Of a DNA stretch of 64,000 nucleotides, positions 1 through 36,785 are shown piece after piece. Location: assembly GCA_964644845.1 (NCBI GenBank), contig CAZXXS010000078.1, forward strand, positions 3,561-67,560, in the 5' to 3' direction. Each line of letters starts with the position of its first letter. Position 1 is the first letter of the stretch. The notes below the pieces were generated by a model. It did no database searches. It was given only the letters and a program-made list of their open reading frames with translations, and was not told where the DNA came from. Source of the stretch: an uncultured Cytophagia bacterium. GTDB lineage: Bacteria > Zhuqueibacterota > Zhuqueibacteria > Oleimicrobiales > Geothermoviventaceae. The translations under genes were made by a program, and so were the position numbers.

Positions 1-50
1 GCGCGGAAAGCCTGGCAAACGCAGCGCTCATCAAACCTGAGGAGGATCTC

Positions 51-413
51 ATGAATCCCCAGACGAACAAGCTGCTTTACTGGGCTCCCCGTTCCCTCTG
101 CATCCTGTTCGCGCTTTTCCTCAGTCTCTTCGCCCTGGACGCTTTCGCGCAGGGCACAGGGTTTTGGCGCAACGTTGCGGCTTTTCTGATTCACCTGGCC
201 CCGGTGTACCTCGTGCTGATCGTGCTCGCTCTGGCCTGGCGTTGGGAGTGGATCGGGGCGGCCGTGTTCGTCGCGCTTGCCTTCCTTTACCTGGTGACCA
301 CCTGGGGTCGTTTTCACTGGACGGCCTACCTTGCCATTTCGGGCTCCCTCACCCTCATTGGCCTCCTGTTTCTGCTGAACTGGCTCCACAAACTGCGGTT
401 GAGAACGTCGTAG
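51..413 (+). CDS. Hypothetical integral membrane protein (about 4 TM, 120 aa)
   Basis: GAGGAGG RBS before ATG 51; four hydrophobic segments; no recognisable catalytic motif. Confidence 0.75.
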   Translation: MNPQTNKLLYWAPRSLCILFALFLSLFALDAFAQGTGFWRNVAAFLIHLAPVYLVLIVLALAWRWEWIGAAVFVALAFLYLVTTWGRFHWTAYLAISGSLTLIGLLFLLNWLHKLRLRTS

Positions 414-568
414 CGGGCTTGAGCTGTCCCTGGAGTGTCGCCAGGCGACACTCTTCCAGGAGAAATCGACGTCTTTAGCCGCTGTCATCTGCTCGAACCT
501 ACGGCGGGCTTCTCGATGCCACCGGAGGTTTCGGCAGGACAAGTCACACAACACCCGTTTGACAGAAA

Positions 569-1093
569 ATGACGGGAGGACCTGTGAAGCCGCTCAAGGT
601 AGTGCTGTTCGTTGTGGGAATGCTCGCTGTTGCCTTTTCGTCACCAGCTTCGGCGGGAGACACCAGCGTGGGCGTTCGACTCGAGTTCGTGGGCGGACCG
701 TGCATTTCCGGCGTTGTTAGCCAGCGTTTGGGGACAAACACCGTACTCAAGTTCGCGGTCGGGGGGTTCCCGGGAATCATTTTGCGGTTGCAGGCAAACC
801 TGGCGTTCGCCCCTGACCGGGACGGGACGTTCTTCGGTACCGGCGGCGTGGGCTACAACCGTTACTACCGGGGACAGGCAAACGGACACAGTCTGGTGGA
901 ACTCCACAGCGGCGTGGGCTACAGCTGGCGTGCGGGGAGCAGTGCTGTGATCGCGCCGGAAGCGGGATTGCTTTACATCCCGACTTCCGCCAATCCCTGG
1001 ATCGTGGACGTTTGGAAGAGCAACGGCGGCACCGGTCCAAAACTGCCGCTGGTCCCCTACGGCGGCGTTGACGTGCTGCACAACGCTGAGTAG
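569..1093 (+). CDS. Hypothetical exported protein, possibly a small outer-membrane beta-barrel
   Basis: Signal-peptide-like N-terminus ending ASA; Gly/aromatic-rich alternating strands (GVGYNRYY, GVGYSW). Start uncertain (569 or the GTG at 584). Confidence 0.55.
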   Translation: MTGGPVKPLKVVLFVVGMLAVAFSSPASAGDTSVGVRLEFVGGPCISGVVSQRLGTNTVLKFAVGGFPGIILRLQANLAFAPDRDGTFFGTGGVGYNRYYRGQANGHSLVELHSGVGYSWRAGSSAVIAPEAGLLYIPTSANPWIVDVWKSNGGTGPKLPLVPYGGVDVLHNAE

Positions 1094-2074
1094 GTCCTAC
1101 GCCCAACACAATGTCTCTTCCAGGGGGTCTGGTCCAGACGGGCAGCCCTTTGCAGCTTGACGCACCGAAGTGCCACCTGGGCAAAGGGTCGCTGAAGGGC
1201 AGAGGTGAATTGTGCCCTGTGTTTGGCAGGCTGTTCGGGATTGGATTCGTTGTGCCGATTGCCGAAGGGCGCAGTTGGATTGTGCTTTTCACCTGCCAGC
1301 CTCACGACACGTGGTGGCTGTTGCTCAATCAGGGGCACGCTGCCTTTGCCACCAGAGAGGACCGATGCCACCGTCCCCGGTCAACGGGCGGAAATGTTTC
1401 GACCACGAAAAAGAATTCTCGAGCCCCTTCGACTTTGTGGCCCCTGAGAAACGCAGTTTGGGGAGTCGCACACGTCGCTCCTTGCTCGAGCGCCGGGGTG
1501 TAGTTTTCGCACGGGGGCATGTTCGCTTCAACGCGAGAGGGCCCCGTCTTACGTCCTTCTCCTCCGCAGTGATGCCAGACGTCCACATGTTGGCACAATG
1601 CAGGGCGAGGACCACTTTCGGTTCTGGTCCGAAAACAATTCCGCAGAGAAGAACCAGGTCATCCCGGGAGAAAACGCTTTCCCGCTGGCAAAGAACCCGA
1701 GAATCCTCGTGAGGCAACCTGGTGCGTCCCTCGAGAGCGCCCGAAGCGGTACGACGCGCGGCCGTTGCCACCAGCCGGAGAGAGCGAGTCCCTTCCTGCA
1801 CGCATCCATTCGCTTCCGTCTTACGTCACGACGTGCACAGGAACTTCAAGCCTGTACACACCGTTCGGGCTGAACCGTCAGCCCCGTGATCGCTCACCTG
1901 GTCAGGTACGCAAAGGTTGCCAGGGTACCTCGAGCGCTTTTGACGACGGGAACTGGCCACGAGCGTTCAGCGAAAACCAAAGGCCACGTTGTCGACCTCG
2001 GAGGCTGCTTCACCGGCCACACACAAGCCATCTTTGTCAGCTCCGCAGAACCGATTGGGAAACCAGACGTTTCC

Positions 2075-2095
2075 TGTCAAGAAAAATTCTTGACA
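2075..2095 (+). promoter_or_regulatory. Perfect inverted repeat TGTCAAGAA-AAA-TTCTTGACA containing a TTGACA -35 box upstream of the peroxiredoxin pair
   Basis: 9-3-9 palindrome read directly; TTGACA at 2090-2095, 86 nt before ATG 2181; only a weak -10 (GACATT) at 17-nt spacing. Confidence 0.55.
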
Positions 2096-2180
2096 AAGTC
2101 CCCCAAATTTACGACATTGAGAATGCTTACTAATTCCTGGCAGTCCAGAGTGTGTGTCTTCAACGAAAAGGAGGTCGGGA

Positions 2181-2786
2181 ATGGCACTGAAGATCGGCCA
2201 GCCGGCCCCGGGTTTCGAGGCGAAAGCCTTCTACCGGGGCAACTTCAAGAACGTGAAGCTTTCGGACTACCGTGGCAAGTGGGTGGTGCTTCTCTTCTAC
2301 CCAGGGGATTTTACCTTCGTCTGACCCACCGAATTGGCGACAGTTGCCGCCGTCTACGACAAGCTTCAATCCCTTAACGCGGAAGTTCTGGCCATCAGCG
2401 TCGACAGCCAGTTCACACACAAAGTTTGGCACGAGCAGGAGCTCTCCAAACTCGTCGAGGGAGGGATTCCCTACCCGATGCTCTCGGACACAGGCGGTAC
2501 CATCGGCTCCCTCTACGGGGTCTACGACGAGCAGGAACACGTGAACATTCGCGGACGCTTCATCGTCGACGCAGACGGCGTGTTGCAAGCCGTGGAGCTC
2601 TTGCCCCCACCCGTGGGTAGAAGCGTAAAGGAACTCGTTCGACAGCTCCAGGCGTTGCAACACACACAGCACACCGGCGAAGCGACAACGTGCGACTGGG
2701 TGCCGGGCGGCACGACGCTTAAGCCGGGTCCTGATCTGGTTGGCAACGTCTGGCAAGTCTGGCGACCGGACGTTTCGCTGGACTGA
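2181..2786 (+). CDS. prxU: Selenocysteine-containing peroxiredoxin (AhpC/TSA, PrxU-type), Sec at codon 48
   Basis: AAGGAGGT RBS, ATG 2181; frame reads [12 protein letters not shown](2322-2324)-PTE, placing UGA exactly at the peroxidatic Cys of the FTFVCPTE motif; continues in frame into ORF 2334..2786. Confidence 0.93.
2335..2352 (+). promoter_or_regulatory. Bacterial SECIS-like hairpin of peroxiredoxin 1
   Basis: TGGCGAC-AGTT-GCCGCCG begins 11 nt after UGA; 6 of 7 pairs (one A-C mismatch, one U-G). Confidence 0.6.
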
Positions 2787-3026
2787 GCGAGTGTCGCGAA
2801 CGCTGTTCTTCTCCGGTACGAACGCGAGTGACAGCCAACACGTTCCGCCGGAGTACCGGGATCACAGTAAAACAAGGGGGCACAGTCTTAAAAGATGGGA
2901 TCACCATCCCCGCTCCAGGCGCTTTGCCTGGGGTGGGTTGCCCGCGTTTGGGATTGGCAATTTGAGCGGGCGTTCAACTCGGCTTCGAATGTGGCCGCCA
3001 CGAAACCAACCAAGGAGGTGACAGGA

Positions 3027-3776
3027 ATGAACAAGACCACAGGTCGCGCAATTGCAGCCGCCATCGGGCTCTTCTTCCTCGTGGGCTTGTTCTGGCTGTC
3101 CCCGCGCACCAGCGACACCAGCTTTGCCGCTCCGCAAAAGGCAATGAAACACCAGATGGTGAAGGAGCACAAAGCGGAGCGCATGCTTGCGCGCGTAGGC
3201 AGCCAGGCACCCGATTTCGAACTTCCGGCCTACGTGAACGGCGGATTTAAGAAAATCAAGTTGTCTGACTACCGCGGCAAGTGGGTAGTGGTTTGCTTCT
3301 ACCCCGGCGACTTCACCTTCGTCTGACCGACGGAACTGACGGCGGTCGCCGTCAAATACAAAGAGCTTCAGTCGCTGGGCGTGGAGGTGCTTGCCATCAG
3401 CACCGACAGCCGCTTCTCACACAAGATCTGGCAGGAAATCGAGCTTTCCAAAATGGTTAAAGGCGGTGTTCCCTTCCCGATGCTGGCTGACCGGGGCGGA
3501 CGAGTTGGCCGCATGTACGGGGTCTACGATCCCAAGTCGGGCGTCAACATCCGCGGTCGCTTCCTCATCGATCCGGATGGGGTGATCCAGGCAATGGAGG
3601 TCTTAGCGCCGCCGGTCGGTCGCAACGTGAATGAGCTGATTCGCCAGATCAAGGCTTTCCAGTACCACCGCAAAACGGGCGAGGTCTGTCCGGCCGGCTG
3701 GGAACCCGGTAAAAAGACTCTCAAACCGGGTCCCGACCTTGTCGGTAAGGTCTGGAAGGTCTGGAAACCCGAGTAA
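3027..3776 (+). CDS. prxU: Exported or membrane-anchored selenocysteine peroxiredoxin (PrxU-type), Sec at codon 100
   Basis: AAGGAGGT RBS, ATG 3027; N-terminal hydrophobic segment [17 protein letters not shown]; [12 protein letters not shown](3324-3326)-PTE; in frame with ORF 3381..3776; resolving motif EVCPAGW. Confidence 0.93.
3337..3354 (+). promoter_or_regulatory. Bacterial SECIS hairpin of peroxiredoxin 2
   Basis: Perfect 7-bp stem TGACGGC-GGTC-GCCGTCA starting 11 nt after UGA; GGUC loop resembles the E. coli fdhF SECIS apical loop. Confidence 0.8.
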
Positions 3777-3831
3777 GAGGACTCACCAGGATGGTGGCGG
3801 CCACCTGAATAGCCGGGTCATCTTCCGGACG

Positions 3832-3869
3832 ACAACAGGCATCCTCGCGAGGATGCCTGTTGTTTTTTT
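3832..3869 (+). terminator. Rho-independent terminator after the peroxiredoxin pair
   Basis: Perfect inverted repeat ACAACAGGCATCCTC-GC-GAGGATGCCTGTTGT followed by a T run. Confidence 0.9.
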
Positions 3870-4144
3870 GCGTCTGCGGCCCAGCTAAGCGCAAGCCGCA
3901 CGAACGTCAGGGTGCTCGGCCTGGTTCCGTGTCCTCCCTTGCAAACCAATCCTTCCCCACGCCAGCCAGACCGGACGCGGGGCGAACTGCCTCGCATTCG
4001 AGAAAGTAGAACCGAATGGACCCTGCAGGCGGAACGAAAATGCGCCCACAAACGTAAGTCCTCGTGAAGTCGCTACGTGTCCAAGGAGTTCGGGAGACGC
4101 TTGCTGCAGCGGACCCGACAGTTCTCGGGAAGGAGAGCACTGGC

Positions 4145-33644: not shown

Positions 33645-35075
33645 CTAAAACCGGCTGTTCAATCGAAATTCGACACCCCGAAATTCGGGCACGAAAGCGC
33701 AAACGCCCCCGGAACAGAGCAAACCCGCCCGCCTTGAGCCAATCGTCAGCACAGCCTGGTGCCGTCCGTCCAGGGTAGCCGAAAAAACGAGAGCCGGAAG
33801 CGTCTTCCGCTCCTCAATCGGATTGGAACTCCGGTCGATTTGCACTGCAACAGAGTAAGAGGAGGCTTTCGCCAGATTGAACGTCACCAACTGGTTCCAG
33901 TAGTTAGGTCCATCCACCAGGCGTACACGCTGGAGCTGAACGTCCAGGAATGTGCTCCAGACTGTGGTCAGGTAGCGTTCTACTTCAATTGCCCCCGTCC
34001 GCACGCTCTCCCGTCCGAACATGTGGTCCGACGTTTCATCCAGCACAGCCCTGAGATTCCACTGTCCAAGTTGTTCGTAGCGGACGTCCAGAAACCACTC
34101 GTGGTAACGCGAATGAGGAGCGTTCGTGTGGGTAGCTCCACGATTAACAAGCACGACCACGGACCATCCCGTTGCCGGAGCAGACGTGAATTGAACCTGA
34201 AACCCACGTTCATCCCGCGGCCACAGCAAATGCGTGTGCCGATTCAGGAGAGCCACGGAGTGCGTCGGCACCAACGGCGGAGGATTGTTGAACGGGAGAT
34301 CGAAATTCAGGTAGTCTTTCCACTCGAAACTGAAAGCCCCAAGCGGCAGAGCGACCGACGCTGCCGTGTAGAAGGCGTGCGAAGCAGCACCTCTGAACCA
34401 GACTCCCACGCTCCGCCAGGCGTATTCGGACGTCACGTTGAGCAAATCACCGAGCCAGTGTGCGCGCACGGCCCCAAAATCCGCTCGATCAAAAGCAAAC
34501 CGGTCGGAAGGGTACCAGCGCATCGCCGCCGTACCAACCTTAAACCTCGGCATCAGCCAAAGGTTGACGTCCGCTCCTCTGACCACGTTCTCGCGTCGTC
34601 CGGTCTCTGGACTGAGGGGTTGCGCAGAGAAAAAACGCCCATCTGCCCGGGAACCCTGATACTCCAGCCACACGCCGTCCGCGTTCCGATCCTGGACGAA
34701 TGAACGCTCGATTCGATCCAAAACCAGCGTGCGCAGCTCGAAAGATTGGAAGAGCAAGCCTTGCCCGATCTTCTCGTAGTAATTGCCGAAACGCATCCGC
34801 AGTCCACCGTGACGGACCTCCACGAAACGCTGACTAATTTTGCCGAACGAACCCAACTGCGGGGTGGACTGGGCCATCTCCAACCGGAAACCAAAACGAA
34901 TATTCTGCGCCCAGAAATCTGTGTCCAGCCAGTCGCGCAACACATCCGAATTGTCCGCCGTCGACCTGCTGTACTCAAGGCGGTTGGCAGCAAGCACGTT
35001 GTCAAATGGCTGTGCCCGTCCCCACGTTGGGAAAACTACCAGTCCGATTCCCGCCACTGTCCACCAGAGCTTCAT
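33645..35075 (-). CDS. DUF6029-like outer-membrane beta-barrel with a C-terminal CSGGVC loop
   Basis: Signal peptide (start ATG 35075); GNYYEKIGQGLLFQSFE motif; C-terminus RRAGLLCSGGVCAFVPEFRGVEFRLNSRF with terminal Phe (BAM-type signal). Confidence 0.8.
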   Translation of the reverse strand: MKLWWTVAGIGLVVFPTWGRAQPFDNVLAANRLEYSRSTADNSDVLRDWLDTDFWAQNIRFGFRLEMAQSTPQLGSFGKISQRFVEVRHGGLRMRFGNYYEKIGQGLLFQSFELRTLVLDRIERSFVQDRNADGVWLEYQGSRADGRFFSAQPLSPETGRRENVVRGADVNLWLMPRFKVGTAAMRWYPSDRFAFDRADFGAVRAHWLGDLLNVTSEYAWRSVGVWFRGAASHAFYTAASVALPLGAFSFEWKDYLNFDLPFNNPPPLVPTHSVALLNRHTHLLWPRDERGFQVQFTSAPATGWSVVVLVNRGATHTNAPHSRYHEWFLDVRYEQLGQWNLRAVLDETSDHMFGRESVRTGAIEVERYLTTVWSTFLDVQLQRVRLVDGPNYWNQLVTFNLAKASSYSVAVQIDRSSNPIEERKTLPALVFSATLDGRHQAVLTIGSRRAGLLCSGGVCAFVPEFRGVEFRLNSRF

Positions 35076-35223
35076 CCGTCGCCGTACTCTGTGTGCGTTA
35101 TTTGGCCGCTGTCCTTTCACCTCAGGTTTCCCGTAAAGATCAACGCGTCGCTACAGAAGCACTTTTCACCTGTCAACAGCCTCGTCACCCTCATCAACAA
35201 GTCGAAAGCGAAGTCGAAGTCGT

Positions 35224-35751
35224 TCACTCTTCTGTCCGCTGCCAGTCTTTCAAGGCCCGAATCACTGCCTCCTCAAGCGTTTTTTCATCCCCAGGCGAAT
35301 AACCCACGTGCTCCCAGAGAACCTGCAAATCCTTCCCGATGAGCAGGCTCGTGGGCAACACACTCACGCGAAACAAACGCGACAATTCCTGATTTCGATC
35401 AAGGATCACGGTAAAGCGGAAACGTCGTCCGCGTACGAGCGAGCGAACACGGGAGGCTGTGGCCTCACCGTCCTCGCTGATGGCCAGCAGCGAAAAACCG
35501 TCCCCTTTGAAGCGGGCGAAAATCTCGTCCAGGTAGGGCAATTCCTTTTGACAGGGAGCGCACCAGGTGGCCCAGAAGTTCAGAAGGACGGGTCCCTTCT
35601 CTGTGAGCTCACTCAAGTGCACACGTTTCCCATCGAGGGAACGTGCTCGAAGATCAGGAACGCGTCTCAAATCCCCAGCTGCGAACCCGGGCGCCCTACC
35701 CAGGAGAAGAACAACGAGGGCCAAAACAACCGTCCGGCTAAGAGTTCGCAT
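35224..35751 (-). CDS. Exported TlpA-family thiol-disulfide oxidoreductase
   Basis: Signal peptide; LLNFWATWCAPC active site; cis-Pro VLPT. Confidence 0.93.
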   Translation of the reverse strand: MRTLSRTVVLALVVLLLGRAPGFAAGDLRRVPDLRARSLDGKRVHLSELTEKGPVLLNFWATWCAPCQKELPYLDEIFARFKGDGFSLLAISEDGEATASRVRSLVRGRRFRFTVILDRNQELSRLFRVSVLPTSLLIGKDLQVLWEHVGYSPGDEKTLEEAVIRALKDWQRTEE

Positions 35752-35963
35752 CTCAAAACCTCTTCAGCTTTGCGTGGAAACGACCGACCCAGGCTAGCAG
35801 TGCAGCCTTCTTACCGCCCTGCCGCAGCTTAAATTCGTCTCGGTAGACATACCTTCGGGAAAGCGCGACGACGTTTGCGCTCAGCCTGGGAAACCTGGTC
35901 AGACCTCGCAGGGTGGTTGGCCCCAGCACTGCCGTCCCAAAGCTGCTCCGTCAGTCCGCGCAA

Positions 35964-36785
35964 CTAACGGAACACCGCAACGCGTCTCGTCGCCACGTCT
36001 TGACCGCACCTTGCGCGGATCAAGTAGACCCCTGCAGGAACTTGGTTACCGCTTCGGTCCCTGCCATCCCAGACAACACTTCTTCCACCAGATCCCACCG
36101 GCCCCCGAAAAAGGAATCGAATTTTCCGGCCCCGGAGATCAAACACCGCCACTTCTACAGGCTCATTTCGAGAGGCCCAGATGCGCACTCGCGCGGCGCT
36201 GGATCTTCCATCCGGCACAAAGGGATTTGGGTAGACGGCACTCAGCTGGAAATTTTCGGGCGCAGCCCTGGGCGTCTCATCCTTCACACCCGTCTGCGGG
36301 AGCCAGGTCTCAATGGTCTGGATGAGCGCCGCTTTGTCGTAGCCGTAGTTGGTGTAACGAACTACCCAATCTGGACTGAGGACCACATTGTGAGGAATGT
36401 ACCCCATCCCGTACTGCCTCCACACCTTCCCCTGGGAGTCCAGTAGAATTTGGTACCTTAGACCAAACTGGTTCCTGAAGGTTTCCACCGTAGAGGCAGC
36501 CTCCTTCAGGTTGATTCCAATGACCTGAAGCCCCTTGTCTTTGTAAACCTCAAAGATGTCTTTCTGTAAGCTCGGAGCCTCCGAGCGGCAGGCAGGTCAC
36601 CACGTCGCAAAGAAATTCAGTAAAACAACTTTTCCTTCGTAGGCTTTCAGCCGCACGTCGGCACCACGAAGGTTCTTGAGAACGAAATCGCGAACGGTGT
36701 CGCCGACGGCGTACTGTGCTTTGCTTGTGACAGGCAATGACAGAAGAAGAGCCACCCCCGCTGCTACGACCCTACCTCCTCGCAT
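35964..36785 (-). CDS. Selenocysteine redoxin (TlpA/AhpC fold, UPAC active site) fused to a FlgD/T9SS-type CTD; Sec at codon 63
   Basis: ORFs 36597..36785 and 35964..36488 share a frame; bridging sequence reads LLNFFATW-TGA-PACRSEAPSLQKDIFEVYKDKGLQVIGIN; signal peptide; cis-Pro YIPH; CTD YPNPF...VFDLRGRKIR...WDGRDRSGNQVPAGVY. Confidence 0.9.
36570..36586 (-). promoter_or_regulatory. Bacterial SECIS hairpin of the Sec redoxin
   Basis: Minus strand GCTCGGA-GGC-TCCGAGC, a perfect stem starting 11 nt after the UGA at 36597-36599. Confidence 0.78.

Follow-up and report, generated by a model that had tools for sequence, protein, structure and literature searches.

Does a bacterium that makes selenocysteine (Sec) peroxiredoxins place them on both sides of its inner membrane, and what would re-reduce the exported enzyme? 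The question is raised by two tandem genes, here called prxU-a and prxU-b, in a 64,000-nucleotide (nt) stretch from an uncultured bacterium of the Zhuqueibacterota (GenBank assembly GCA_964644845.1, contig CAZXXS010000078.1, positions 3,561 to 67,560 of the forward strand). We refer to the whole stretch as the window and count coordinates from its first letter. Taken as a whole, the evidence is best explained by a functional pair of Sec peroxiredoxins of the PrxU family, of which PrxU-b is exported with its N terminus inside and its C terminus outside (N-in/C-out) and is re-reduced via a CxxC protein fed by DsbD; we put the probability of this reading at about 0.7. The two genes and the codons at issue are the following.

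2181-2786, plus strand: prxU-a, 201 amino acids (aa), a leaderless Sec peroxiredoxin with Sec48, a displaced C-terminal Cys171 (GEATTCDW) and a TGA stop.
3027-3776, plus strand: prxU-b, 249 aa, with a leader, Sec100, the canonical resolving Cys221 (GEVCPAGW; TGT at 3687-3689) and a TAA stop.
2322-2324, plus strand: in-frame TGA of prxU-a (codon 48), read as selenocysteine.
3324-3326, plus strand: in-frame TGA of prxU-b (codon 100), read as selenocysteine.

The equivalog model for PrxU (NCBIfam NF040737; curated cut-off, 270 bits) matched prxU-a at 315.9 bits and prxU-b at 378.7 bits, a six-frame genome search with the same model returned 312.7 and 373.3 bits, and the Pfam domain of both proteins is AhpC-TSA; by these scores their assignment to the PrxU-type Sec peroxiredoxins is secure. 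The UGA of both genes aligns with the peroxidatic cysteine of peroxiredoxins (Prx), including human Prx2. The nearest solved structures to PrxU-b are typical 2-Cys Prx enzymes with the same GEVCPAGW (human Prx2, E = 1.4e-53), and the motif around Cys221 is identical to that of Prx2, which is the resolving-Cys feature of the typical 2-Cys (AhpC/Prx1) type. EVCPAGW is missing from PrxU-a, in which the Cys of GEATTCDW (Cys171, 2691-2693) is shifted by +2. This displaced Cys is kept in both genera with prxU-a orthologs, as GEAT[TV]CDW in a congener (G001) and in one of three genomes of the sister genus (G004). The two paralogs are 62% identical over 197 aa without a gap (BLASTP), residue 53 of PrxU-b being aligned with residue 1 of PrxU-a, and the N terminus of PrxU-b is 52 residues longer and includes a 17-residue hydrophobic stretch (8-24). 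An earlier note on this DNA had read FTFV-UGA-PTE in both paralogs and had ascribed to the second about 50 extra N-terminal residues with a hydrophobic helix, a strong ribosome-binding site of its own and a canonical EVCP resolving motif, with a single strong terminator 3' of the pair. All of this was borne out, the in-frame TGA standing at the peroxidatic position of each gene.

Are the two UGA codons read as Sec? A hairpin starts 11 nt after the UGA of each gene and spans positions +11 to +28.

2335-2352, plus strand: selenocysteine insertion sequence (SECIS) hairpin of prxU-a, GGCGAC-AGUU-GCCGCC, with one A.C mismatch.
3337-3354, plus strand: SECIS hairpin of prxU-b, UGACGGC-GGUC-GCCGUCA.

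In fdhF, E. coli SelB recognizes an apical loop that contains GU and lies at a similar distance. Folding the 72 nt after each UGA as single sequences gave unremarkable z-scores, and the comparative analysis alone was informative. The tetraloop is xGUx in 102 of 102 distinct PrxU genes, with an invariant GU, and 91% of the cells in the hairpin are paired, a value that none of 500 column shuffles reached. Three of the pairs show compensatory G-C/A-U/U-A changes, and pairing drops to 23-46% in registers shifted by 1-2 or +3 nt. The reading frame is conserved on both sides of the UGA of prxU-a in three genomes. The ratio of nonsynonymous to synonymous substitution rates (dN/dS) relative to the congener, calculated over the full length across the UGA, is 0.043 for prxU-a, 0.022 for prxU-b and 0.023 for a third paralog described below. 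The host assembly (4.6 Mb, 58.8% GC) encodes a tRNA-Sec (anticodon tca) adjoining selB, together with selA and two copies of selD (C97:146624-147550 and C29:28244-29167). One selD copy is part of an open frame of 764 aa, suggestive of a fusion protein; the other has an in-frame TGA and is therefore predicted to encode a selenoprotein itself. The earlier note had allowed for an absence of UGA read-through. Frame, hairpin covariation, Sec machinery and purifying selection all favor Sec decoding, which we regard as settled for both UGAs as far as sequence can settle it.

Is the leader of PrxU-b translated? The features around the two start codons bear on this question.

2170-2174, plus strand: Shine-Dalgarno sequence GGAGG of prxU-a, 6 nt before ATG 2181.
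2787-3026, plus strand: 240-nt spacer between prxU-a and prxU-b, conserved only in its last ~40 nt, which include the Shine-Dalgarno sequence.
3014-3018, plus strand: Shine-Dalgarno sequence GGAGG of prxU-b, 8 nt before ATG 3027.
3027-3128, plus strand: leader of prxU-b (residues 1-34), with n-region MNKTTGR, h-region A8-L24 and a c-region with a possible signal peptidase I site, S-F-A↓A-P (the arrow marks the cleavage position).

We compared this locus with the congener, the sister-genus genome and three metagenomic variants of prxU-b (P0004-P0006). In each of the three genomes a GGAGG precedes the leader ATG by 5-8 nt, and the internal Met53 (Met52 in the sister-genus genome) has no properly spaced Shine-Dalgarno sequence, the nearest GGAG being 15-17 nt away. 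In an alignment of the three genomes the 240-nt spacer shows essentially no conservation, even between congeners; the exception is the ~40 nt before ATG 3027, which are partly conserved even in the sister genus. A conserved RNA element in the spacer was considered and ruled out, conservation being confined to the translation-initiation region. Within leader codons 1-52, our genome and the congener differ by 7 synonymous and 4 conservative nonsynonymous changes (dN/dS 0.107). The leader of the sister-genus genome, MVRKGIGR-TMALLVGLLVVALWIW-QPPQGAKSSYA↓GP, has diverged in its letters and keeps the same layout of n-, h- and c-regions; the small-x-small site S-[FY]-A↓[AG]-P after the helix is conserved between the two. 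The metagenomic variants carry the same leader, and one of them, P0006, has Lys at the position of Met53; hence, Met53 is not a general start. A start downstream of the hydrophobic segment, also contemplated in the earlier note, is argued against by the Shine-Dalgarno sequence, the spacer conservation, the dN/dS value and P0006. On this evidence, translation seems to begin at ATG 3027 and to include the leader, whose layout as a signal peptide or anchor is retained in another genus.

Which side of the membrane would the catalytic domain then face? The positive residues K3 and R7 of the n-region are followed by the hydrophobic stretch A8-L24, which is the architecture of a Sec-translocon signal or anchor. 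In both genera the residues ahead of the helix carry a net charge of +2 to +3 and those that follow it about +1, as read from the sequences; by the positive-inside rule, this bias argues for an N-in/C-out topology, in which the catalytic domain is periplasmic. The S-[FY]-A↓[AG]-P site fits the -3/-1 rule and sits 10 residues beyond the h-region, which is itself long at 17 aa. An AlphaFold2 model of PrxU-b has an isolated helix (4-19), a disordered segment (20-36), a second helix (37-48) and, from residue 55 on, a Prx domain modeled with confidence. A linker of unusual composition precedes this domain.

3141-3185, plus strand: Met/His/Lys-rich linker of PrxU-b, residues 39-53, with the AlphaFold2 helix 37-48.

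The linker counterparts are AMKHKMMMKEHKAEHM and AMKPQMVKMKEHKAEHK in the variants and AMKMEGCAEKMEHRM in the sister-genus genome, and the Met/His/Lys composition is retained despite indels in P0005, P0006 and the sister-genus genome. The segment could bind metals or scavenge oxidants. PrxU-b is probably extracytoplasmic and its catalytic domain is probably periplasmic.

From sequence we infer the export, topology, cleavage, catalytic cycle and reductant of the mechanism that follows. SelB would recode both UGAs at the hairpin that starts 11 nt downstream. PrxU-a, leaderless and with its C-terminal Cys displaced by two residues, would stay in the cytoplasm, and the leader of PrxU-b, with its positive n-region and 17-residue hydrophobic helix, would guide the enzyme to the Sec translocon, with the N terminus in and the C terminus out. 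The catalytic domain of PrxU-b, with Sec100 and Cys221, would thus come to lie on the periplasmic side of the inner membrane, where it would be either freed by signal peptidase at S-F-A↓A-P or tethered through the Met/His-rich linker. We hypothesize that Sec100 reduces peroxide there and is converted to a selenenic acid, that this acid and the partner subunit's Cys221 form a selenenylsulfide, and that the selenenylsulfide is re-reduced by an exported thioredoxin-fold CxxC protein supplied with electrons by the single three-domain DsbD of the genome.

Leaders on Sec-PrxU proteins are also found elsewhere, and those of other phyla account for about 12% of our sample. We surveyed 105 distinct Sec-PrxU sequences, and about 10 of them have classical signal peptides (for example, MQKKRIFAVLAMVAIMIIFTGVSTVMA↓QD); they come from Deltaproteobacteria, Ignavibacteriota and unclassified metagenome-assembled genomes (loci L082, L085, L086, L098, L102, L106 and L125-L127; proteins P0040 and P0043). 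These proteins share with PrxU-b the family, the Sec site and an N-terminal hydrophobic export signal, and two of them (L085 and L125) group with PrxU-b on the tree with weak support. They differ in having a classical short signal peptide followed by an N-terminal Cys motif (CVxPAxGP) and no C-terminal Cys, whereas the helix of PrxU-b is longer and is followed by a Met/His-rich linker, the N-terminal Cys motif is absent and EVCP is present. The N-terminal Cys is widespread in the family: about 85 of the 105 sequences have an N-terminal extension of 30-45 aa with one conserved Cys. For most phyla the motif is M-x-E-x-K-[DE]-x-C-[VA]-x-P-[AT]-x-G-P; for Calditrichia it is GCARPTGGPVGE. A C-terminal resolving Cys is absent from nearly all Sec-PrxU sequences with such an extension, and the N-terminal Cys may serve as an alternative resolving residue for the selenenic acid. 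Both PrxU-a and PrxU-b lack the motif. A leader-bearing protein such as PrxU-b would accordingly be uncommon and not unique in the family; what seems distinctive is the combination of a leader, a Met/His-rich linker and a canonical resolving Cys. Signal-peptide PrxU genes of other phyla can also lie in oxidative-stress clusters: at one such locus (L127), the gene is followed by rubrerythrin-like, flavodoxin-like and Tpx-like open reading frames (ORFs), as judged by eye from N-terminal sequences only.

What could reduce PrxU-b in the periplasm? The earlier note had suggested that the exported copy is recycled by a TlpA-like protein encoded in the window.

35224-35751, minus strand: TlpA-like thioredoxin-fold protein with a signal peptide, WCAPC and Redoxin/Thioredoxin_8 domains, 31 kb from the pair.

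The gene is the middle one of a minus-strand trio (33645-36785). One of its neighbors encodes a DUF6029 protein of 491 aa, and the other has a TGA within its frame and encodes a redoxin whose C-terminal domain is FlgD-Ig-like. The suggested recycling found no support: the gene is on the opposite strand and 31 kb away, and the co-occurrence test was negative. No TlpA ortholog was detected at E ≤ 1e-25 in the sister-genus genome, which has the pair, and orthologs are present in six relatives without PrxU-b. On this phyletic pattern we rejected the TlpA-like protein as a dedicated partner of PrxU-b. The genome encodes one DsbD (PF02683 match, 190 bits), a 654-aa ORF with an alpha domain, a transmembrane domain with two Cys and a gamma domain (WCVAC), and three exported CxxC thioredoxin-fold proteins, namely, the TlpA-like protein of the window, a lipoprotein with WCPPC and a tetratricopeptide repeat lipoprotein with a C-terminal WCGPC domain. 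DsbD and at least two other exported CxxC proteins would be equally good candidates for the reductant of PrxU-b as the TlpA-like protein.

The pair does not make up the whole complement of Sec peroxiredoxins in this genome. A third Sec-PrxU, which we call c-type (FTFVUATE; 425 bits), is encoded on another contig (C29:106714-107409, locus L001/L042). The c-type is found in about half of 40 related genomes and forms a well-supported clade of 17 rows, all from genomes of the same class; as we read the tree, it is the vertically inherited copy. The tandem of a- and b-type genes is rare and occurs in our genome, in the congener and in one of the three sister-genus genomes, in which synteny beyond the pair is not kept. 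Leader-bearing b-type genes were found in 3 of 167 genomes of the phylum, and three close variants are present in metagenome assemblies. In another phylum, two PrxU genes stand together in one locus (L068). On the tree, the three types form separate clades, the a-type on a long branch and both a- and b-types among the PrxU proteins of other phyla; the backbone is weak. As to duplication or separate acquisition, monophyly of a and b was not rejected by the approximately unbiased test (p = 0.349), the weak backbone applying here as well, and the a/b split is clearly older than the two genera. The a-type evolves about four times faster than the c-type, with tree path lengths to the sister-genus orthologs of 0.86 and 0.23, respectively; its dN/dS of 0.043 still indicates purifying selection. 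The earlier note had proposed Sec peroxidases on both sides of the inner membrane. The apparently translated leader and the probable export of PrxU-b bear this out in part, and the picture is incomplete because there are three paralogs and the third had been left out. The three paralogs differ in the position of the potential resolving Cys, which is in the N-terminal motif in the c-type, canonical and C-terminal in the b-type and displaced within the C-terminal region in the a-type, and they therefore form a natural set for asking how the selenenic acid is resolved.

Several observations weigh against a functional Sec pair with an exported, DsbD-dependent member. The SECIS hairpin overlaps Ala/Val codons and, when slid by -3 nt, is still 85% paired, which we attribute to the GCN codon repeat; the stem of prxU-a contains one A.C mismatch; and Rfam at gathering thresholds found no SECIS family in the whole window, its sole match being one tRNA (tRNA-Ser, ARAGORN). 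For a cleaved signal peptide, an h-region of 16-17 residues and a gap of 10 residues to S-[FY]-A↓[AG]-P are atypical, and the charges on the two sides of the helix differ only modestly. The pair has no linked reductant gene, nor is there a recurrent thioredoxin-like or DsbD gene near the nine signal-peptide PrxU loci. One could argue that one or both UGAs are true stops and the genes decaying fragments, or that UGA is read as Cys or Trp and not as Sec. The stem mismatch, the long branch and the faster evolution of prxU-a would fit, as would the facts that gene callers split all such genes and that database entries are ~83-100-aa N-terminal fragments. Yet frame and high conservation run past the UGA in more than 100 genes of many phyla, full-length dN/dS values are 0.02-0.04, the Sec machinery is complete, the hairpin covaries, and a curated NCBIfam equivalog model covers PrxU; we give this explanation hardly any credence.

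Two further explanations accept the Sec codons and question the export. In one, translation starts at the internal M40, M44 or M53 and yields an ordinary cytoplasmic PrxU, the upstream hydrophobic ORF being fortuitous or giving rise to a minor isoform. M53 does align exactly with Met1 of PrxU-a, and Met or Val is common at this position in the long forms of PrxU; against this, M53 is without a Shine-Dalgarno sequence at a workable distance (nearest GGAG 15-17 nt off) and is replaced by Lys in P0006, the leader is under purifying selection in frame (dN/dS 0.107), and two genera share the Shine-Dalgarno sequence and leader ATG but not the rest of the spacer. An internal start is thus very unlikely in our view. 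In the other, the helix holds PrxU-b to the membrane with the catalytic domain facing the cytoplasm (N-out/C-in, peripheral or amphipathic), where it would reduce lipid hydroperoxides close to the membrane with electrons from cytoplasmic thioredoxin. The length of the helix (17 aa, long for a cleaved signal peptide), the small charge difference (+2/+3 versus +1), the lack of a linked periplasmic reductant in our searches and the annotation of PrxU as thioredoxin dependent speak for such an arrangement, which is opposed by the positive-inside rule favoring N-in in both genera, by the small-x-small site conserved after the helix and by the classical cleavable signal peptides on related PrxU proteins of other phyla. 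We consider a cytoplasm-facing PrxU-b unlikely and prefer the exported, N-in/C-out form.

The remaining features of the locus concern transcription of the pair and its neighborhood.

2075-2095, plus strand: perfect 9-3-9 palindrome TGTCAAGAA-AAA-TTCTTGACA, with a TTGACA (-35-like) hexamer as right arm.
3831-3871, plus strand: intrinsic terminator 3' of the pair, a 15-bp stem followed by a T-run (terminator-like site, 3831-3864).

A terminator scan of the spacer found none on the plus strand between prxU-a and prxU-b. The palindrome (TGTCAAGAAAAATTCTTGACA) lies 86 nt upstream of prxU-a and may serve the pair as operator or promoter; a consensus promoter scan did not find a full sigma-70 site. 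No second copy with up to 3 mismatches exists in the 4.6-Mb genome, including the region upstream of the third prxU gene, and a role as a regulon operator was ruled out on these grounds. The ~2 kb upstream of the pair (window positions 1-2180) contain overlapping low-quality ORFs only, none with a Pfam match in the frames tested, and the downstream neighbor of the pair encodes a MarC-family membrane protein.

What would an exported PrxU mean? The 2026 review of the prokaryotic selenoproteome (PMC13188914) does not discuss exported Sec peroxiredoxins, and the terms "signal peptide" and "periplasm" do not occur in it. A far-reaching and still doubtful possibility, which we offer tentatively, is that PrxU-b represents the first AhpC/Prx1-type peroxiredoxin, and a selenoenzyme at that, in the bacterial periplasm, either anchored to the outer face of the inner membrane or set free there and recycled by DsbD from its selenenylsulfide. 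Its linker might sense metals or oxidants or be sacrificial, and together with the signal-peptide PrxU proteins of other phyla it might be part of a widespread envelope selenoperoxidase system of anaerobes, of which we found no description in the literature searched. A leader-bearing Sec enzyme of the AhpC/Prx1 type would carry envelope peroxide defense into another Prx subfamily and into selenium chemistry, and the bacterial selenoproteome would gain a redox selenoprotein exported by the Sec translocon. Public gene calls split PrxU genes at the UGA, and the leader-bearing N-terminal fragments are consequently filed as "hypothetical" or "redoxin" proteins of ~80-120 aa. The PrxU genes thus flag an annotation problem.

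Among known enzymes, mammalian peroxiredoxin 4 has an N-terminal signal sequence and resides in the endoplasmic reticulum, an extracytoplasmic compartment that is oxidizing for thiols. It shares its subfamily with PrxU-b and is of the typical 2-Cys type (solved structures such as 3vwu and 3tkp; E ~ 1e-51), and the likeness is one of analogy only: unlike PrxU-b, it is eukaryotic and uses Cys, not Sec. The characterized PrxU of Eubacterium (Peptoclostridium) acidaminophilum is a cytoplasmic protein of ~200 aa that is not known to have a resolving Cys. It has in common with our pair the AhpC/Prx1-type fold, Sec in PxxxTxxU and a SECIS hairpin just 3' of the UGA; relative to it, PrxU-b adds a hydrophobic leader and the canonical C-terminal resolving Cys, and PrxU-a has a Cys displaced by two residues. 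This Sec peroxiredoxin was reported by Sohling et al. (2001, as cited in PMC13188914). The closest functional parallel is PprX, a BCP/PrxQ-type enzyme that represents the sole peroxide-reducing thiol pathway demonstrated experimentally in the bacterial cell envelope (PMC3322552). In Caulobacter crescentus, this periplasmic Prx is reduced by TlpA, which is fed by ScsB/DsbD, and the DsbD gamma domain reduces it directly too (Cho et al. 2012, PMC3322552). PprX and PrxU-b differ in subfamily and in catalytic residue (BCP/PrxQ with Cys in the former, AhpC/Prx1 with Sec in the latter), and the TlpA/DsbD route would apply to PrxU-b by analogy. DsbD-fed reduction of PrxU-b is plausible because of the PprX route in Caulobacter, with no special claim for the TlpA-like protein of the window. 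PprX and PrxU-b both have an N-terminal signal sequence or leader, and the action of PprX in the envelope with electrons of the DsbD type provides a working model for PrxU-b.

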